64,000 nucleotides of DNA from assembly GCA_048270045.1 (NCBI GenBank), contig JBLWTS010000003.1:10069-74068 (forward strand), in the 5' to 3' direction. Below are positions 2,641-52,355 of the stretch, one piece after another. Under the pieces are notes generated by a model. It made no database searches. It was not told where the DNA came from and saw nothing but the letters and a program-made list of their open reading frames with translations. The position numbers were made by a program, and so were the translations under genes. Positions within the stretch are counted from its first letter, which is position 1; each line of letters starts with the position of its first letter. Origin of the DNA: Aequorivita sp. (GTDB taxonomy: Bacteria > Bacteroidota > Bacteroidia > Flavobacteriales > Flavobacteriaceae).

Positions 2641-3060
2641 TTATTTATTTTTATCCAGAATATCTTCCAGCTCCTTTTCAGTAAGTTGAAGTTGATTAGT
2701 TAAAAGTTCAATAGCCTTTTTAATCTGGCTGCCAGATTCACTCATTATTTTATCCGCCTGCCCAAGCACCCTTAATTCATCCTCCAAATAAGCTAATTTT
2801 TTTCGTAGAATGTATGGACTTTTAGCCTCATTAACTTGAAGCTCTTTTTCCTCATCACTCATCATTGGCTCCTTTCCACACAAAAGCCAAGAAGGATTGA
2901 GTTCAGGGCATTTATTATATAGTAACTCCGCATCAAAAGAGTTCCTGCTCTTCCAGTTTGAATATACCTGTGGTGTAATTCCTAAAAACTTGGCAAAGTC
3001 TACGTCAGTTTTAAAGCTGTAGTAGTCCTTAATCTTATCTAACATTATGGCCTTATCCAT
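2641..3060 (-). CDS. HTH transcriptional regulator, phage CI-repressor/XRE-like N-terminal domain with helical C-terminus
   Basis: 139-aa ORF. The N-terminus DVDFAKFLGITPQVYSNWKSRNSFDAELLYNKCPELNPSWLLCG looks like a CI-type HTH. The gene is divergent from the sigma/Cas12f-like operon. Confidence 0.7.
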   Translation of the reverse strand: MDKAIMLDKIKDYYSFKTDVDFAKFLGITPQVYSNWKSRNSFDAELLYNKCPELNPSWLLCGKEPMMSDEEKELQVNEAKSPYILRKKLAYLEDELRVLGQADKIMSESGSQIKKAIELLTNQLQLTEKELEDILDKNK

Positions 3061-3085
3061 AACAATAAAATATTTGTGTATAAAA

Positions 3086-3117
3086 TTTGCACAATAAACA
3101 AAACGTTTATATATTTG
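3086..3117 (+). promoter_or_regulatory. Candidate Bacteroidota-type promoter for the 3183..5660 module
   Basis: TTTG at 3086-3089 and TATATTTG (matches TAnnTTTG) at 3110-3117, about 65 nt upstream of the ATG at 3183. Confidence 0.35.
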
Positions 3118-3134
3118 ATTTTCAGTATGTAAAA

Positions 3135-3155
3135 CTGTTCAATAAATGTGAACAG
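3135..3155. promoter_or_regulatory. Perfect inverted repeat CTGTTCA-N7-TGAACAG; candidate operator
   Basis: Read directly from the sequence. It sits between the candidate -7 box and the first ORF, in the divergent intergenic region shared with the CI-like repressor gene. Confidence 0.4.
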
Positions 3156-3182
3156 ATTATTTAATCTGTAAATATAGCTAAA

Positions 3183-3371
3183 ATGAAGCAAACTTATAAT
3201 GCAACCCTTGTCAAGGCGCTTGCCAAGAAGTATGAGATATCGCCGCGATATGTTAGGTACTGTCTCAAAGGAGAGCGATCCCCCTGTTTTGCAGAGAAAA
3301 TTAAAAAGGATTATACAAGATTTATAAGTAAGATAGAAAATATAATAGAAAAGGAATGTAAATCAAAATAG
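3183..3371 (+). CDS. Small (62 aa) basic protein, possible HTH
   Basis: ORF track. ALAKKYEISPRYVRYCLKG is HTH-like. The stop lies 6 nt before the sigma factor ATG, so the two are probably co-transcribed. Confidence 0.5.
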   Translation: MKQTYNATLVKALAKKYEISPRYVRYCLKGERSPCFAEKIKKDYTRFISKIENIIEKECKSK

Positions 3372-3377
3372 TGTCCC

Positions 3378-4160
3378 ATGAAACCAAGCACTTTCATACA
3401 ACTAAAAAAAGGCTGCCCAAACGCCCTTACCGCTATTTATGATGAGTACCAGAGGCGTATTTTTGGGTTGGGCAGGTACTTGCTACGCGACCACTTTGTG
3501 GTGGAATGCCTGATGCAGGACACCTTTTTAAAACTCTGGGTGCACCGCGACCGCATCGAGCGGCCTGAACACATCCTTTTCTTCCTCCTTTTCGTAATGA
3601 AAAGAGAGTGCATCTCCTATTACACCCGACCCAGAAACGACTTCAATAGAAAAATCTGCTCCCTCGATAGTTTTGATAATTATCAAAACTATATGGCGGG
3701 CTACGATCCTCTGACCGAGGCCGAAACCCTAAGGTTACAAGCCAAGGAACAACAACACTTTGAGCTCATACAAAGTGTACTGCCCCTATTAGATACCGAA
3801 GGAAAACACCTAATCGAGCTTTGCCTAAAATACGGCTTCCATTACAAGGCCATTGCTCAAGCCATGGGTAGCAGTGTTACAGACACCAGCAACAAAGTGA
3901 AAAAAGCCATTGCAGCCCTTAAGATCATTGTGGACCAAGGCGGAACGCTTAACAGCAAACAAAAGCCTGCCACCATCAAACTACAAGGTGCAATGACCCC
4001 CGAACAGGCGGAAATACTAAAACTGCGCTGTGAAAATAAATACTCCTTCGCCGACATAGCCCAAACCCTCAACCGCCCCCAAAAGGAAATCCATCGAGAA
4101 TTTATAACAGCATACAAACTCATACAACAAAAACATCACCTACAAACACAATCCGCTTAA
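3378..4160 (+). CDS. ECF-type sigma-70 family factor with an extra C-terminal sigma4-like HTH module (260 aa)
   Basis: Region-2-like DTFLKLWVHRDRIERPEHILFFLLFVMKRECISYY. Region-4-like LIELCLKYGFHYKAIAQAMGSSVTDTSNKVKKAIAALK. A second region-4-like segment follows: MTPEQAEILKLRCENKYSFADIAQTLNRPQKEIHREFITAYKLI. It is about 100 aa longer than the ordinary ECF sigma at 51876..52355. Confidence 0.85.
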   Translation: MKPSTFIQLKKGCPNALTAIYDEYQRRIFGLGRYLLRDHFVVECLMQDTFLKLWVHRDRIERPEHILFFLLFVMKRECISYYTRPRNDFNRKICSLDSFDNYQNYMAGYDPLTEAETLRLQAKEQQHFELIQSVLPLLDTEGKHLIELCLKYGFHYKAIAQAMGSSVTDTSNKVKKAIAALKIIVDQGGTLNSKQKPATIKLQGAMTPEQAEILKLRCENKYSFADIAQTLNRPQKEIHREFITAYKLIQQKHHLQTQSA

Positions 4161-4213
4161 TGTGAAAACTTTAGGACCTAAATTCGTAATTCCAAATCCG
4201 AAATACCACCAGC

Positions 4214-4340
4214 TGTGGAATTTGAAAATTGAAAATTAATAATGTAAACCCGAGGGTGCTTGTAGACACTTAAGGTGAGGCCAACCGCACTCACTAAATG
4301 CCTGGGCATATACAACGCGTGAGTACTTACTTTTTTTTAA
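4214..4340 (+). ncRNA. Candidate guide RNA copy A: conserved ~105-nt scaffold (4214-4316) plus a divergent 3' tail
   Basis: Direct repeat of 5675-5781, about 80% identical by eye. It has three hairpins (4259-4274, 4275-4294, 4298-4309). Their stems are conserved between the two copies and their loops differ. It ends in ATACAAC, followed by sequence that diverges from copy B. See findings. Confidence 0.55.
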
Positions 4341-4559
4341 ACGCTCTTTAAATTGTTTTTGTAAGCCCAAACTTTTAGCCCTCCAACCAGCGAAGCAAGA
4401 GGAAGACAATGCAAAAAGGAAAGAATAATGAACAACTGAGTTGAATAGACTCATACTATTTAAATTTTTCTAACCAACACCCAACGACTGTCACACTGAG
4501 CGCAGTCAAAGTGCATAACCAACAAACAGACATCAGACAACAGAAAACACACAACTGAA

Positions 4560-5660
4560 ATGAAAACCTCCACCCTAAAACTCACCCGAAAACTCCAGCT
4601 CATCATAGACCTGCCAGAAGGGGAGGAGCGCAACGAAGCTTTTGAAAAACTCTATCGCTGGCAGAACCGTGCTTATCGTGCGGCAAACCTGATTGTCTCC
4701 CATCACTATATTCAGGAAATGATACAGGAATTTCTATACCTCTCCGATAAAGTGCAATACAAACTAACCGACGAGATAAAGGACCCTCTGGGCATACTTA
4801 ATCGCTCCCGAAATAACACAACTTATCGTTTGGTATCAGACCGTTTCAAAGGCGAAATCCCAACCAATATCCTCTCCAACCTCAACCGTGCTCTTCTCCT
4901 ATCATTCAACAAGGAGAAGCATGGATACTGGAAAGGGGAGCGGTCGGTAAAAAACTTTAAGAGGAATATGGCCTTCCCTTTTGCCCCTGATGAATGCATC
5001 CACTGCCTGCACTACAACGAGGAAAAGAAAGCCTTTTGCTTTCGATTGTTCAAAATTCCCTTTCGAATCTATCTGGGCAGGGATTCCACCGACAAGCGAA
5101 AGCTGTTGGAAAGGGCAATAGCAGGAGAGACCAGCATCCGCACCTCCCATATTAAATTAAAAGATGGAAAAATATTTTGGCTAGCAGTCTTTCAAATAGA
5201 AAAGGAAAACCACACCCTAAGGCCAGAAGTAATTGCCGAGGCCTCCCTTTCATTGGAATTTCCTATTGTGGTAAAGGCCAATAAAACGAGGCTCACCATT
5301 GGTAGCAAAGAGGAATTCCTGCACCGAAGGCTCGCAATACAGGCAGCGCGGAAAAGAGCGCAAAGCGGTGCCACCTTTTCCCGCTCCAGCAAAGGCACCA
5401 AAAGAAAGCTAAAAGCAGTGGATAGCTTCCATGAAAAAGAGCGCAATTATGTCCACACCCGCCTCCACGTGTACAGCAGAAAGCTAATCGACTTCTGCGT
5501 AAACCAACAGGCAGGAACGCTAGTCCTTTTGAACCAAGAAGACAAAATAGGCATCGCCAAAGAAGAAGAATTCGTATTGCGAAACTGGAGCTATTATGAG
5601 TTAATGGAAAAAATAAAATACAAAGCCCAAAAAGCAGGAATAGAACTTATAGTAGATTGA
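4560..5660 (+). CDS. Cas12f/TnpB-like protein, C-terminally truncated and apparently nuclease-dead (366 aa)
   Basis: The N-terminus KLTRKLQLIIDLPEGEERNEAFEKLYRWQNRAYRAANLIV has the WED/REC-like layout of TnpB/Cas12f. The central FRLFKIPFRIYLGRDSTDKRKLLERAIAGETSIRTSHIKLKDGKIFWLAVFQIEKE resembles the Cas12f WED/RuvC junction. The C-terminus YSRKLIDFCVNQQAGTLVLLNQED...LRNWSYYELMEKIKYKAQKAGIELIVD matches the RuvC-II region and the following helix. The protein stops exactly where the TSQ/CxxC zinc ribbon and RuvC-III would begin. Confidence 0.75.
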   Translation: MKTSTLKLTRKLQLIIDLPEGEERNEAFEKLYRWQNRAYRAANLIVSHHYIQEMIQEFLYLSDKVQYKLTDEIKDPLGILNRSRNNTTYRLVSDRFKGEIPTNILSNLNRALLLSFNKEKHGYWKGERSVKNFKRNMAFPFAPDECIHCLHYNEEKKAFCFRLFKIPFRIYLGRDSTDKRKLLERAIAGETSIRTSHIKLKDGKIFWLAVFQIEKENHTLRPEVIAEASLSLEFPIVVKANKTRLTIGSKEEFLHRRLAIQAARKRAQSGATFSRSSKGTKRKLKAVDSFHEKERNYVHTRLHVYSRKLIDFCVNQQAGTLVLLNQEDKIGIAKEEEFVLRNWSYYELMEKIKYKAQKAGIELIVD

Positions 5661-5674
5661 TTTTTTGGTTTAAT

Positions 5675-5805
5675 TGTGGAATTGTTTATTGCTAATTCTT
5701 TATTGAAAATTGTAAAGAGGGTTCTTGTAAACCCACAAGGTGAGGCCTAGGCACTCACTAAATGCAAAATGCATATACAACGCGTGGGCTCTCTTACCTT
5801 ATAAA
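5675..5805 (+). ncRNA. Candidate guide RNA copy B: scaffold (5675-5781) plus a divergent 3' tail
   Basis: Second copy of the 4214-4316 element, starting 15 nt after the Cas12f-like stop codon. Hairpins at 5724-5739, 5740-5758 and 5762-5774. It ends in ATACAAC, followed by GCGTGGGCTCTCTTACC... Confidence 0.55.
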
Positions 5806-5864
5806 ACATTCCGTTCGCACAGGTCGCGGCATGTCCCCAATTCCCTTGAGTCCTGCCTCCAAAA

Positions 5865-5969
5865 GTCGTGATTCCAACCGTCGTGATTCCAACCGTCGTG
5901 ATTCCAACCGTCCTGATTCAAACCGTCCTCCCTCAAACCGTCCTGATTCCAACCGTCGGGCCCCAAACC
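5865..5969. repeat. Tandem 15-mer repeat (about 7 copies, consensus CGTCGTGATTCCAAC)
   Basis: Read directly. Same family as 13400..13676 and the degenerate copies at 63840..63990. It produces the spurious ORFs 5762..6040 (+) and 5794..5982 (-). Confidence 0.9.
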
Positions 5970-5978
5970 CTTCTTTCC

Positions 5979-6761
5979 TCAAAACACTCCCACAATCCGC
6001 ATCCCGCCACTTTTGGGAATTGCTAACATCTCAGTATTGACCTCCTTATAAAAAGTTATTCCCACCGCTACTACCAATCCAGCCTCCTGTGGCAACTGAG
6101 AAATGGGTAGCGTTATCTCCATTGTCTCCATCTCGATACCAGCTACGGTAAGGGGCAGAATTTCACCCTGCATAAACCCTCCCAAACCGATGACTTCCTT
6201 GCAAAGTGGAAGATATTTTTTATGTTTGTCATTATAGGCATAATTGCTCAAGGCAGCTACATTTATTTGCAGTGCAAAATGCGTAGCTTTCTCCGGACCG
6301 GTAATTTGGGTTTGCGGTTTTATATTGCCAACTTCCCATAGCACTCCGTTTCCGTTTTTATGGAATCGCGGCATTGCCTTTAAGCCTCCTAAACTATTTA
6401 CTAGGGGTTGGAACTTTCTAAATTCAGTTTCAATCAAGTGAGATCCATTGGTGCGCAGGTCCAATTTTCGCCCTCCTTCTGTTCCTTCTCCAAAATAAGC
6501 AATACGCCTAAGTGCCCCACTAAACCTAGCCGACACGCTGCCATCTGCCAAGGAAAGGGAATGAAGTGAAAAACTTTTCCGCAAATCGCGGGCAGCCGTA
6601 CTCCCAACTCCAAATTCAATACTCGAGAGCTTGGTGCGCTCGCTTTGTTTAATGGGGCCTTCAATTTTTTTCCTGACTCTTTGCTGTCCATTTTCATCCA
6701 TATAAAATGTCAGCTCCCCAATGTTTCCGCTTATTCCCGTTAATCCATTTACTCGTGCCAT
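5979..6761 (-). CDS. Hypothetical protein (260 aa), no recognisable domain
   Basis: Long ORF convergent with the Cas12f-like gene. I see no signal peptide and no motif I recognise. Confidence 0.6.
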   Translation of the reverse strand: MARVNGLTGISGNIGELTFYMDENGQQRVRKKIEGPIKQSERTKLSSIEFGVGSTAARDLRKSFSLHSLSLADGSVSARFSGALRRIAYFGEGTEGGRKLDLRTNGSHLIETEFRKFQPLVNSLGGLKAMPRFHKNGNGVLWEVGNIKPQTQITGPEKATHFALQINVAALSNYAYNDKHKKYLPLCKEVIGLGGFMQGEILPLTVAGIEMETMEITLPISQLPQEAGLVVAVGITFYKEVNTEMLAIPKSGGMRIVGVF

Positions 6762-6951
6762 AACTATCTAATTTATAAAGTCTTGCCGCCTTGGTCAAGA
6801 CCTTTGTTAAACTTTTATAAACTGCTTAAATAAAATATTCTAAACCATCCTTTATGGGAGTTAAAGGCCAAGTTAAGGCCACCATGCTCCATAGATGCGG
6901 CTACCTAAGTCCGGGGTAAGTCCGGGTATAATGCGGGTAAATTTTTATAAA

Positions 6952-7206
6952 TTACTTGCTACTTTGATCTTCACATTTCCCATCCGTCCAAGAAAGTAGT
7001 CCCGCCCGACCAGCGGCGCAGGGGTTCGAGTAGGTCTTTCCATCGCAACCACATACTGGTGCATATTCTAAAGTACACGGCCCATCACTTATTTTGGATG
7101 CATCGATACACGCAGTGGTGTTGGTGCTGCCACAAGAGTTGACTAATAGCAACCCGCAAATAAGAAAAATGGGAGTCCAAAAAGATAGTTTGTGCACTAC
7201 TTTCAT
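6952..7206 (-). CDS. Kazal-type serine protease inhibitor domain lipoprotein
   Basis: Start moved to the ATG at 7206 (MKVVHKLSFWTPIFLICGLLLVNSC, signal peptide plus lipobox Cys). Kazal signature CTLEYAPVCGCDGKTYSNPCAAGRAG. Confidence 0.75.
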   Translation of the reverse strand: MKVVHKLSFWTPIFLICGLLLVNSCGSTNTTACIDASKISDGPCTLEYAPVCGCDGKTYSNPCAAGRAGLLSWTDGKCEDQSSK

Positions 7207-7370
7207 TTCTTGAAATTGTACTACTAATATAAGCCCGTTTGCCTCGAATTCCAAAAATAGGGTGCAAATATATTTAAAACACTAATAATCAAATTTTTAT
7301 GTATTTATTTCTTGAATTTACTAAAGTTTTATTGTAATTCATTTTCCTTCTTTTTAAACGTTAAAAGGCT

Positions 7371-7378
7371 TAAATTTG
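7371..7378 (+). promoter_or_regulatory. TAAATTTG -7 box (TAnnTTTG) upstream of ppa
   Basis: Matches the Bacteroidota -7 consensus, 38 nt upstream of the ATG at 7416. Confidence 0.45.
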
Positions 7379-7415
7379 CACCCTCAAAAATTGGAACAAA
7401 GTAAATATCATAAAT

Positions 7416-7928
7416 ATGAGTAAGACATTCGATGTGCTAATAGAAATTCCTAAAGGCAGCCGTAACAAATATGAATACGATTTTAAACTAAAGAAAATTC
7501 GTTTCGACCGTATGCTTTTCAGCAGTATGATGTACCCGGCCGATTACGGTTTTATTCCCGAAACCTATGCCCAAGATGGCGATCCTTTGGATGTATTGGT
7601 GCTAGGCCACGAACCTACCTTCCCAATGTGCGTGATGGAAGTAAAGGCTATCGGCGTATTCCATATGGCCGATGAAAAAGGACCGGATGAAAAGATAATC
7701 TGCGTCCCTATGTCCGATCCTATCTGGAACCAGCTAAATGACCTGGAAGATCTCAACCCACACCTTATTAAGGAAATAGAACATTTCTTTAAAGTCTATA
7801 AAGACCTTGAAAAAAAACGTGTAGACGTAGGAGGCTGGGGCAACGCCGAAGAAGCCTTGGAAATCTACCGCCAATGCGTAAAACGCTACAACGAAACCCC
7901 CGAAGTACACGGACAGTTCAGTATTTAG
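7416..7928 (+). CDS. ppa: Soluble inorganic pyrophosphatase (family I)
   Basis: 170 aa. IEIPKGSRNKYEYD...YPADYGFIP...DGDPLDVLV are classic family I PPase motifs. Confidence 0.95.
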   Translation: MSKTFDVLIEIPKGSRNKYEYDFKLKKIRFDRMLFSSMMYPADYGFIPETYAQDGDPLDVLVLGHEPTFPMCVMEVKAIGVFHMADEKGPDEKIICVPMSDPIWNQLNDLEDLNPHLIKEIEHFFKVYKDLEKKRVDVGGWGNAEEALEIYRQCVKRYNETPEVHGQFSI

Positions 7929-51325: not shown

Positions 51326-51883
51326 TTATTCCTGCATTAGTGTCTGTAGTAATTTTAATTCCTTCCAGATTTGATATGCAATCAGAATCGCCAAGGCAAT
51401 AAAGATTGTGGTAGAGGAAATGAGGATATATGTGTAAAACCCACCAGAAAACTCTAGTTTAAAAGAGGGTAATAACATTGAAAAGCCTATAATATAGGTT
51501 AAAAACAAAATCGGGGTAATTATGAAGTGTATGTATTTTCTCCGATTGTAAAATAATATAAGCTTGTTGGTGTAACTTTTCATATCCCAACCTGCTGGGA
51601 AATGATTTTTTTTAATCATAGCCAGAAACTCGATTCCTATTCTGAGAAGTAAACTGCCAATCATAATGCCCAAACCTAAAAACACCGTGTTGTTCTTAAA
51701 CGCCGAAATATAGAAGAAGAACGCAATTAGAATTATAACGGTTATGCCCAAAACCCATTGCCCGATTATTTGCTTTTTACGAATGCTTTTTGACTTCTCA
51801 ATAATTCCAGAGAAGTCTTTTTCAGCATACTGCGGAATATTTCGTTCGGACCATTGCTGTTTTATATTTTCAAAATTATTCAT
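51326..51883 (-). CDS. Membrane protein, possible anti-sigma factor
   Basis: 185 aa and multi-TM. It overlaps the ECF sigma gene stop by 8 nt. Confidence 0.5.
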   Translation of the reverse strand: MNNFENIKQQWSERNIPQYAEKDFSGIIEKSKSIRKKQIIGQWVLGITVIILIAFFFYISAFKNNTVFLGLGIMIGSLLLRIGIEFLAMIKKNHFPAGWDMKSYTNKLILFYNRRKYIHFIITPILFLTYIIGFSMLLPSFKLEFSGGFYTYILISSTTIFIALAILIAYQIWKELKLLQTLMQE

Positions 51884-52355
51884 GTTTTACACAGTTTGAA
51901 AGTTGTTCTTTGATTCGGTGGATTCTAGTTCGAATTGCAGCGTGGGTTATTCCAATGATTTCCGCTATTTCATTTTGTGGCACTTCTTCTAATTCCAAAA
52001 GAATAATACTTCTGTTTTCCACGCTTAACGAGTTTATGCATTTGTACATACTCTCAAAACGGTTTTCTGTTTCTATCGGATTTGGAACGCTGTCATTAGT
52101 GATATCTATTTTTAACTCGATATATTTTTTCTTTCGTAGTTCCTGAAGGCAAGTGTTTACCGTTATTCTATAAATCCAGGTAGAAATTTTGGATTGTTCG
52201 CGAAAATGGGAAAGGTTTTGCCAAACTTTCACGAAAACCTCTTGGGCAAGGTCTTTAGCCAGAAATTCGTTGCCTTTCACATAACCCAAACACAAGCCTA
52301 TGACTCTTGGATAATTCTCCTTATATATTTGTTGAAATTCCAATTCGTTACTCAT
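51876..52355 (-). CDS. ECF (group 4) sigma-70 factor, ordinary size
   Basis: 159 aa. DLAQEVFVKVWQNLSHFREQSKISTWIYRITVNTCLQELRKK (region 2) and EIAEIIGITHAAIRTRIHRIKEQL (region 4). Confidence 0.9.
   Translation of the reverse strand: MSNELEFQQIYKENYPRVIGLCLGYVKGNEFLAKDLAQEVFVKVWQNLSHFREQSKISTWIYRITVNTCLQELRKKKYIELKIDITNDSVPNPIETENRFESMYKCINSLSVENRSIILLELEEVPQNEIAEIIGITHAAIRTRIHRIKEQLSNCVKHE

Follow-up and report, generated by a model that had tools for sequence, protein, structure and literature searches.

The closest described relatives of the locus presented here are the RNA-guided transcription systems composed of hth, rpoE, dcas12f and a guide RNA (gRNA). A complex of sigmaE, dCas12f and gRNA recruits RNA polymerase (RNAP) in these systems and transcription starts without promoter motifs, as demonstrated for orthologues (PMC13472631, PMC12259091). 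This represents a natural CRISPRa-like mechanism, with an RNA guide in place of promoter recognition. The earliest mention of the system is by Altae-Tran et al. (PNAS 2023, PMC10691335). The C-terminal domain (CTD) of sigmaE is described as unique to dCas12f-linked sigmaE and as docked on the truncated RuvC of dCas12f, and the published descriptions call it only "HTH-like" or "CTD" (PMC10691335, PMC13472631, PMC12259091). In the cryo-EM structure from Flagellimonas taeanensis, the CTD binds the truncated RuvC of dCas12f.1 through R218, F225, H240 and F243, and deletion of residues 201-265, the R218A substitution or the H240A/F243A substitutions leave about 50% activity (PMC12259091). Since deletion of the CTD costs only about 50% of the activity, the domain is contributory and not essential, and the contacts between sigma4 and the dCas12f lid matter more (PMC12259091). 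The R-loop formed by dCas12f and the gRNA replaces -35 recognition. Contact with DNA is made by the resident sigma4, in the minor groove; it also holds the flap-tip helix, while the CTD contacts protein (PMC12259091). Transcription by the F. taeanensis orthologue is independent of promoter motifs (PMC13472631). The CTD is one of three tethers keeping sigmaE-RNAP on dCas12f, and both the domain and its docking are already known, having been published between 2023 and 2026 with cryo-EM and mutagenesis of the same domain.

The window, which is the whole 64-kb stretch of DNA that was analysed, very likely carries an orthologue of this hth/rpoE/dcas12f/gRNA system in which the CTD docks sigmaE on the RuvC domain of dCas12f. 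The rpoE gene (3378..4160, plus strand) has an ATG start and encodes a dCas12f-associated ECF sigma factor (sigmaE) of 260 aa. Its product matches RpoE of F. taeanensis (PDB 9N9Q chain C, 9n9q_C) over the full length with an E-value of 1.4e-85 and 52% identity. A total of 298 homologues were found, the best 120 of which are all ~255-270 aa with full coverage. The closest relatives, at 92-93%, belong to Aequorivita viscosa, and the window contributes a further orthologue near this species.

The sigma2 domain of the protein (aa 20-84; 3435..3629, plus strand) was identified by Pfam (Sigma70_r2, E 3e-8). Two full-length ECF models, TIGR02985 (profile positions 2-159 of 162) and TIGR02937 (2-162 of 165), span aa 16-182 from one end to the other, and TIGR02985 is the NCBIfam model with the highest score for the N-terminal core. 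Because these models end at aa 182, the canonical core of sigma2 and sigma4 is complete before aa ~187. The resident sigma4 (aa ~138-187; 3789..3938, plus strand) is divergent in sequence and has helices at 140-152, 156-163 and 167-187 in the AlphaFold2 model of the full-length protein. It is followed by a flexible linker (aa 188-205; 3939..3992, plus strand) with the sequence GGTLNSKQKPATIKLQGA, which exhibits pLDDT values below 50 at aa 189-203 in the same model and 28% identity to F. taeanensis sigmaE, compared with 53% in the flanking domains. The CTD is a sigma4-type three-helix HTH module (aa 206-260; 3993..4157, plus strand) supported by Pfam, AlphaFold2, Foldseek and conserved contact residues. 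It begins at aa 206 with MTPEQ, contains helices at 208-218, 224-231 and 235-259 in the full-length model, and aligns with residues 200-261 of 9n9q_C. When modelled alone the CTD has a mean pLDDT of 84 with a core above 90, while the full-length model has a pTM of 0.38 with its domains placed independently and an unreliable inter-domain arrangement. The coordinates, ATG start, length and linker all agree with a preliminary description made from the sequence alone, and the extra module that it had placed past sigma4 in this ORF is confirmed. That description had set the ORF against a "housekeeping-style" ECF sigma factor of 159 aa at 51876..52355, said to lack the extension. The extension is indeed absent there, as the ECF models reach aa 155-158 of 159, but the gene, which is on the minus strand, encodes an ordinary ECF sigma factor and the housekeeping label does not apply.

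The HTH-like CTD is specifically ECF-sigma4-like, and this is the one small addition made here to the published accounts. Pfam analysis of the full protein places Sigma70_r4 (PF04545) on CTD aa 206-239 with an E-value of 8.8e-7 and 28.8 bits against a cut-off of 24.1, and Sigma70_r4_2 (PF08281) reaches 27.8 bits against a cut-off of 25.7. The best stretches of both families in full-length sigmaE lie on aa 205-239, and the CTD outscores the resident sigma4 for Sigma70_r4. The isolated CTD of the window scores 23.0 bits with PF04545 and 21.9 with PF08281, slightly under the cut-offs. Across a set of diverse CTD segments, Sigma70_r4 was matched in 45/45 and Sigma70_r4_2 in 43/45 (Pfam, E <= 0.01), making them the best-scoring and most frequent families. 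The sigma4 end of TIGR02937 was matched by 43/45 segments and that of the Bacteroidetes ECF model TIGR02985 by 36/45. The resident sigma4 segments of the family reach Sigma70_r4_2 in 22/45 cases and Sigma70_r4 in 2/45. Because much of the signature is gone from the resident sigma4, automated annotation will put "region 4" on the wrong module. Foldseek analysis of the CTD model returned 9n9q_C first (TMq 0.86). The domain also superposes on AlgU, SigK, BldN, SigD4, region 4 of E. coli sigmaE and domain 4 of SigW with TMq 0.70-0.75 and rmsd 0.6-1.0 A over 45-48 residues; the small size of the domain makes the E-values for these ECF sigma4 domains weak (0.1-0.5). The sigma4-like character that had been assigned to the C-terminal module is thus borne out by Pfam, NCBIfam and fold comparison.

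The further claim that this module is a duplicated sigma4 is unproven, as pairwise similarity is lacking in BLASTP and the profile similarity is weak. A recent duplication of sigma4 was rejected on BLASTP self-comparison, in which the resident sigma4 (aa ~112-188) and the CTD (aa ~189-260) gave no alignment at E <= 100. Comparison of the CTD with the family sigma4 using hhalign gave a weak match in register, with P values of 9e-5 to 2.5e-4 and a probability of 43-59%, and the sigma2 control found nothing with the CTD profile. The CTD HMM also produced weak in-register secondary matches on the sigma4 of distant members (iE 0.015-0.09). A possible but tentative history has a Bacteroidetes ECF sigma4 duplicated in tandem to produce the CTD, inside the gene or through fusion with the sigma4 of a paralogue, after which the two copies would have swapped constraints. 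The distal copy would have kept the sigma4 signature while its DNA-reading helix became a protein-docking face replacing the lost zinc finger (ZF)/RuvC-III of Cas12f, and the proximal copy, freed from -35 reading, would have become a structural adaptor touching both the minor groove and the lid of Cas12f. The profile-level similarity between CTD and sigma4, together with the TIGR02985 matches of the CTDs, is explained just as well if the sigma4 was captured from a paralogous ECF gene.

It is unlikely that the likeness to sigma4 is convergent or generic and that the CTD is a tri-helical HTH recruited from a YlxM/UPF0122-like or LuxR/GerE-like family, with no copying of sigma region 4, though several searches point in this direction. 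Besides 9n9q_C, the CTD profile compared with PDB sequences had the UPF0122 protein 1xsv (E 0.0029) as its best match, and this search contained no sigma factor other than 9n9q_C, the matches at E 0.003-0.1 being UPF0122 and MarR/AdcR-type HTH proteins. The PDB search alone consequently proves no kinship with sigma4; the proof comes from the Pfam and NCBIfam profiles. In the Foldseek ranking 1xsv and RcsB come after 9n9q_C and slightly ahead of the ECF sigma4 domains, Pfam UPF0122 is matched by 34/45 and NCBIfam YlxM by 37/45 of the CTD segments, and the lack of BLASTP similarity between the CTD and the resident sigma4 also fits recruitment. However, the two Sigma70_r4 families lead the Pfam matches while GerE is found in only 1/45 segments, and both TIGR02937 and TIGR02985 match the CTDs at their sigma4 end. 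The CTD profile also aligns, without a shift, to that of the resident sigma4 of the family (P 9e-5) and not to sigma2. In addition, YlxM/UPF0122 is usually considered a sigma4-like HTH family itself, which counts against recruitment from outside.

The preliminary description had proposed that the extra module is the docking surface for the Cas12f-like protein, and this is supported by the cryo-EM structure and mutants of the 52%-identical orthologue together with the contact residues kept here. The window equivalents of the CTD contact residues are R217, F224, H239 and F242, all four identical to those of F. taeanensis and conserved among 121 homologues at 100%, 99%, 94% and 100% respectively. 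The published sigma4 residues that contact dCas12f or DNA (L137, H144, Y152 and I184) are also identical in the window sigmaE, with L137 conserved in 98% and I184 in 95% of the 121 homologues. The physical contact between CTD and dCas12f and its functional effect come from the literature on the orthologue, and at 52% sigmaE identity the same would be expected of the window protein. The CTD would not read DNA, and its helix 2 and "recognition" helix 3 would expose a conserved hydrophobic and polar patch made of the same four residues. This patch is predicted to pack on the truncated RuvC of the guide-bound dCas12f subunit, filling the gap of the lost zinc-finger/RuvC-III segment, and the docking would keep sigmaE-RNAP attached to the R-loop of dCas12f and gRNA. 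The resident sigma4 would act as a bridge between the lid of dCas12f, the minor groove of the DNA and the flap-tip helix of beta, while sigma2 would melt the DNA and transcription would start at a fixed distance from the target.

A mainly regulatory role, in which the CTD acts as a built-in anti-sigma that folds back on sigma2 and sigma4 until dCas12f captures the factor, with docking secondary or concurrent, is very unlikely. C-terminal extensions regulating sigma activity are known from ECF groups elsewhere, and the long disordered linker (aa 189-203) would permit such a fold-back. A regulatory role is also favoured by the absence from rpoE-dcas12f loci of the FecR-type anti-sigma that adjoins related rpoE genes (PMC13472631). 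However, the AlphaFold2 model has no confident intramolecular contact (pTM 0.38, domains placed independently), the published deletion of the CTD lowers activity and does not raise it (PMC12259091), and auto-inhibition is not reported in PMC10691335, PMC13472631 or PMC12259091. The preliminary description had also suggested that the CTD replaces -35 recognition when the factor is delivered by RNA guidance, and its role as a second DNA-reading sigma4 that replaces or supplements recognition of a -35-like or auxiliary element would be favoured by its more canonical sigma4 signature (Sigma70_r4 in 45/45 vs 2/45 for the resident sigma4), its superposition on sigma4 domains solved with -35 DNA (2h27, 6jhe; rmsd about 1 A) and the basic K236, R240 and K246 retained in the helix 3 sequence, but it is extremely improbable because the solved orthologue complex has the CTD on dCas12f RuvC and not on DNA, with the R-loop supplanting -35 recognition and the resident sigma4 making the minor-groove contact (PMC12259091), because the invariant helix-3 residues H239 and F242 form a hydrophobic protein interface, and because the orthologue transcribes without promoter motifs (PMC13472631).

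The role of the CTD as a dock for dCas12f was also considered at the level of gene linkage. Within the sigma family, dCas12f is encoded directly downstream in 79/80 loci, and the remaining locus contains an N-terminal remnant of dCas12f cut by an insertion. This survey ran from a full-length sigma alignment and covers the sigma family, not CTDs fused to unrelated proteins. A search with the CTD profile found only 119 representatives at E <= 1e-3 among 1.84 billion, mostly of the same architecture or fragments of it. The specificity of the extension, a survey of which the preliminary description had called for, is already published: the CTD extension is specific to dCas12f-linked sigmaE except for a rare clade tied to restriction-endonuclease (RE)-like genes (PMC13472631). 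The present survey repeats this one way, from CTD-bearing sigma genes to dCas12f downstream, and the RE-like-linked clade did not turn up in any of its 80 loci. In the distant CTD-bearing sigma P0166, the first 23 residues of the next ORF loosely resemble the dCas12f N-terminus as judged by eye.

The hth gene (2641..3060, minus strand) is divergent from rpoE and encodes a 139-aa CI-repressor-type HTH protein (Pfam Phage_CI_repr, E 1.4e-5). Copies with 97% and 85% identity are found at the same position in loci L001 and L002, and a divergent hth is the usual neighbour in rpoE-dcas12f loci (PMC13472631). A repeat search identified two overlapping palindromes upstream of hth (3132..3169), CTGTTCA-N7-TGAACAG and ACAGATTA-N2-TAATCTGT. 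These are candidate HTH operator sites by analogy with the HTH auto-repression site published for rpoE-dcas12f loci (PMC13472631). The hth-associated ncRNA was not located in 3061-3182, where only the operator-like palindromes were found. Directly upstream of rpoE is a small ORF of 62 aa (3183..3371, plus strand), which is conserved in position in 6/80 loci, with 92-94% identity in L001 and L002 and 39-48% in L030, L041, L048 and L057 (E down to 1e-16). It has no Pfam or NCBIfam match and possibly encodes a second small DNA-binding protein. Pfam analysis gave no match to a FecR-type anti-sigma next to rpoE, the neighbours being hth and this 62-aa ORF.

Downstream of rpoE, dcas12f (4560..5660, plus strand) encodes a C-terminally truncated Cas12f homologue of 366 aa that matches PDB 9n9c_A, "Nuclease-deactivated Cas12f", with an E-value of 2.1e-167. 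The truncation is reflected in Pfam TNB, which is matched only at profile positions 1-20 of 60 at the extreme C-terminus, and the match to the TnpB profile covers 66-338 of its 389 positions. From its close match to 9n9c_A, the protein is predicted to be nuclease-dead. The gRNA (5712..5800, plus strand) was identified by blastn and folding, with inferred boundaries, and comprises a scaffold and a predicted 14-nt guide, GCGTGGGCTCTCTT, at 5782-5795. Its folding z-score is -3.37, and the scaffold lies at the equivalent place, about 15-30 bp past dcas12f, in 74/80 loci (blastn). In the literature the gRNA is given a length of 89 nt, with a guide of 14 nt at its 3' end (PMC12259091, PMC13472631). 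The spacer between rpoE and dcas12f is 400 bp, whereas most loci form a tight operon, and it holds an extra gRNA-like scaffold copy (4247..4335, plus strand; boundaries approximate) that aligns with the scaffold after dcas12f and carries a 14-nt guide-like tail, GCGTGAGTACTTAC, after which comes a T-run. By blastn this copy is similar to the sequence at the gRNA position in 68 related loci, but it folds no better than shuffles (z +0.33), and functional gRNA status cannot therefore be claimed for it. Its presence between rpoE and dcas12f suggests that the position of the gRNA is less fixed than in the canonical arrangement. Rfam analysis of the whole window gave nothing at gathering thresholds, the gRNA and the hth-associated ncRNA being without an Rfam family. 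Published targets have a 5'-G TAM upstream of the regulated operon, which is a susCD operon, a two-component system or the locus itself (PMC13472631). A search of the 64-kb window with both predicted 14-nt guides, allowing up to 3 mismatches, gave only chance-level matches.

Among known systems, the YlxM/UPF0122 small HTH proteins (1XSV, 1S7O) are the nearest non-sigma match to the isolated CTD in sequence and fold, but they are stand-alone proteins of about 110 aa with no sigma fusion and no link to Cas12f. The canonical ECF sigma region 4 (PF04545/PF08281; E. coli sigmaE region 4 with -35 DNA, 2H27) shares the three-helix HTH fold and the sequence signature with the CTD, which differs in following a complete sigma4 as a second copy. 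Canonical region 4 reads the -35 major groove and binds the beta flap, whereas the helix-3 face of the CTD in the F. taeanensis orthologue binds the dCas12f RuvC domain, and the CTD probably does not act as a region 4, with binding to the -35 element and to the flap-tip helix of beta. The sigmaE homologues linked to nuclease-dead RE-like genes (Hoffmann et al., Extended Data Fig. 1, PMC13472631) have the same extra CTD on an ECF sigma factor and an inactivated nuclease partner, although this partner is RE-like and not Cas12f. The F. taeanensis dCas12f-sigmaE system (9N9Q/9N9C; PMC13472631, PMC12259091, PMC10691335) differs from the window in its host, in a gap of 5-20 bp instead of the 400-bp spacer with an extra gRNA-like copy, and in the lack of the additional 62-aa ORF ahead of rpoE; no susCD target is identifiable within the 64-kb window. 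Both loci have the same order of divergent hth, rpoE, dcas12f and gRNA, and they share the sigma2-sigma4-linker-CTD architecture, eight identical interface residues, a truncated dCas12f and a conserved gRNA scaffold.

The rpoE gene (3378..4160, + strand) encodes a 260-aa dCas12f-associated ECF sigma factor (sigmaE), in exact agreement with the ORF given in the preliminary description. Over its full length the protein matches chain C of PDB entry 9N9Q, RpoE of Flagellimonas taeanensis (Fta), with an E-value of 1.4e-85 and 52% identity. The next gene, dcas12f (4560..5660, +), encodes a 366-aa protein with a match to the nuclease-deactivated Cas12f from the same set of structures (E 2.1e-167); it ends 20 positions into the Pfam profile Cas12f TNB and therefore lacks the zinc-finger/RuvC-III end. 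A CI-type hth gene identified by Pfam (2641..3060, −) lies upstream in divergent orientation, and the locus is organized like the published dCas12f-sigmaE system of RNA-guided transcription. Directly before rpoE is a small ORF of 62 aa (3183-3371, +) with no family match, which is kept at the protein level in the same position in 6 of the best 80 of 269 related loci (39-94% identity). This product features an HTH-like stretch recognized by eye (KALAKKYEISPRYVRYCL) and may be the "second HTH" known from some published systems. Two overlapping palindromes, CTGTTCA-N7-TGAACAG and ACAGATTA-N2-TAATCTGT, are located between hth and the small ORF (3132-3169) and are candidate operators of the HTH repressor. 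No susCD or two-component operon adjoins the locus. The flanking genes give little information on it: an ORF of more than 692 aa (2-2077, −) extends beyond the start of the window and weakly matches a GHKL-ATPase (E 2.8e-4), and a convergent 260-aa ORF (5979..6761, −) has no Pfam match.

The core, linker and second module previously described for sigmaE are confirmed by ECF models, Pfam and AlphaFold2. The sigma2 domain spans aa 20-84 (Pfam Sigma70_r2), and the NCBIfam whole-protein models TIGR02985 (Bacteroidetes ECF) and TIGR02937 (ECF superfamily) align end to end with aa 16-182, so that a two-domain ECF sigma factor is complete by about aa 187. A linker (aa 188-205) follows, and the second module, the C-terminal domain (CTD), begins at M206. 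The full-length AlphaFold2 model, built from an alignment of 33 homologues, places a long connecting helix (111-137) after sigma2, then the sigma4 helices (140-152, 156-163 and 167-187), disorder at aa 189-203 (pLDDT <50) and a second helix triplet (208-218, 224-231 and 235-259). Modelled alone, the CTD has a mean pLDDT of 84, with the core above 90.

The CTD was called sigma4-like, and Pfam, NCBIfam and Foldseek all bear this out beyond chance. The Sigma70_r4 (E 8.8e-7) and Sigma70_r4_2 matches in full-length sigmaE both fall on the CTD (aa 205-239) and exceed the Pfam gathering scores. When 45 non-redundant CTD segments from homologues were searched against Pfam, Sigma70_r4 was matched by 45/45, Sigma70_r4_2 by 43/45, UPF0122/YlxM by 34/45 and GerE by 1/45; against NCBIfam, the ECF superfamily model was matched at its sigma4 end by 43/45, and the Bacteroidetes ECF model by 36/45. 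The top Foldseek hit of the CTD model is the solved Fta sigmaE (9n9q_C, TMq 0.86), followed by YlxM, RcsB and then many ECF sigma4 domains (TMq 0.70-0.75, rmsd 0.6-1.0 A). The term is a slightly sharper description than the "HTH-like" of the literature. The resident sigma4, the first region 4 of this family (window 3789-3938), has drifted in sequence, with Sigma70_r4_2 found in 22/45 segments and Sigma70_r4 in only 2/45, compared with 45/45 for the CTD. Automated annotation therefore puts "region 4" on the CTD (3993-4157) and misses the true sigma4, and automated domain maps of dCas12f-linked sigmaE proteins are misleading about this region.

The further proposal that the module is a duplicate of sigma4 remains a hypothesis. 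BLASTP found no similarity between the two segments of the window protein, but the family profiles align in register over 40-44 columns (P 9e-5 to 2.5e-4) with a probability of only 43-59% and 14-15% identity, and sigma4 of distant family members is hit weakly by the CTD HMM, as a secondary match in register (iE 0.015-0.09). As a control, profile-profile comparison of the CTD with sigma2 returned nothing. This similarity is as compatible with an old duplication as with acquisition of the sigma4 of a different ECF gene.

Co-folding of TnpB/Cas12f proteins with their RpoE was performed by Altae-Tran et al. 2023 (PMC10691335), and the Fta complex has been solved, with the CTD bound to the dCas12f.1 RuvC domain, where F225 and F243 form a hydrophobic core and R218 and H240 make hydrogen bonds (Xiao et al. 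2025, PMC12259091). Deletion of Fta sigmaE residues 201-265, R218A or H240A/F243A each leaves about 50% activity, and the resident sigma4 makes contact with the minor groove of the DNA, the beta flap-tip helix and, through L137 and I184, the lid of dCas12f (PMC12259091). All eight residues probed in Fta (L137, H144, Y152 and I184 of sigma4; R218, F225, H240 and F243 of the CTD) are identical in the window protein, where the CTD contacts are numbered one lower (R217, F224, H239, F242) and are 94-100% conserved among 121 homologues. The solved orthologue and these conserved contacts support the suggested docking surface for the Cas12f-like protein. The alternative suggestion, a CTD that takes the place of −35 recognition, is a wrong attribution: in Fta the R-loop supplants this function (PMC12259091); the substitute is dCas12f-gRNA, and what the CTD contacts is protein. 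In the predicted structure, F224 starts helix 2 of the CTD, and helix 3, which corresponds to the "recognition" helix of the sigma4 fold, carries both H239 and F242; an ancestral DNA-reading face would have become a protein-docking face.

One genome per species was scanned for the locus survey, giving 269 relatives of the sigmaE family, of which the best 80 loci were examined. The CTD is present in 80/80, and dCas12f is directly downstream in 79/80, usually by 5-30 bp. The exception is a Chryseobacterium piscium locus (L069, 4515-7151), where an insertion carrying genes for HsdS-like specificity subunits and a tyrosine recombinase has cut dCas12f to its first ~30 codons, leaving an N-terminal remnant (MEKSTITLTRRIQLLIDV...); this is a natural knockout with an orphaned CTD-bearing sigmaE. 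In this survey the extension is not a common feature of unlinked ECF sigma factors. Among 1.84 billion representative proteins, a CTD profile matched only 119 at E <= 1e-3. Of these, 34 are complete proteins of sigma2-sigma4-CTD architecture and many others are fragments of such proteins; there are also a small number of ordinary ECF sigma factors, matched on sigma4, and some multi-repeat HTH proteins. Five matched proteins (P0128, P0136, P0138, P0143 and P0158; 646-1087 aa) contain 4-8 tandem sigma4-like HTH units, with an "LRDEQGLSF..IA" unit repeated in P0128 and P0136, and are unrelated to the window locus. A distant CTD-bearing sigma factor (P0166) is flanked by a divergent Xre-type hth and an ORF that, by eye, is loosely similar to the dCas12f N-terminus in its first 23 residues. 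The other ECF sigma factor in the window (51876..52355, −; 159 aa) indeed lacks the extension, but is not "housekeeping-style": it is encoded on the minus strand as part of a conventional ECF pair. The 3' end of its gene is overlapped by 8 bases by the start of a 185-aa ORF (51326..51883, −) with no family match, which reads as a multi-pass membrane protein and is probably its anti-sigma factor.

The CTD is real and mechanistically important, and is already fully described, including structure and mutagenesis. Hoffmann et al. (bioRxiv 2025, Nature 2026, PMC13472631) report it as unique to dCas12f-associated sigmaE, with one exception: a rare clade whose linked genes are restriction-endonuclease-like and nuclease-dead. 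The residual value of the window locus lies in the question of whether the CTD originated from a sigma4 and in the unusual gRNA placement. A structured gRNA-type element of ~89 nt (~5712-5800; folding z −3.37) is located 3' of dcas12f, as in 74 of the best 80 of 269 related loci, and is separated from the convergent ORF by an intergenic 15-bp tandem repeat (GTCGTGATTCCAACC; 5865-5958, 6.3 copies, 87% matches). The rpoE-dcas12f spacer (4161-4559) is 400 bp, compared with 5-30 bp in most of the 80 loci, and holds a second gRNA-like scaffold (~4247-4335) with its own 14-nt tail GCGTGAGTACTTAC followed by T8. The function of this copy is uncertain because its predicted fold is not better than shuffles. 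Targets of both predicted guides were searched for within the 64-kb window and none was found. Scaffold copies between rpoE and dcas12f also occur in L005 (one) and in L002 (three), a Leeuwenhoekiella MAG locus with six copies around a single dcas12f (4836-7426), three before and three after. This arrangement is an omega-RNA/gRNA array of the type proposed by Altae-Tran et al. (PMC10691335).
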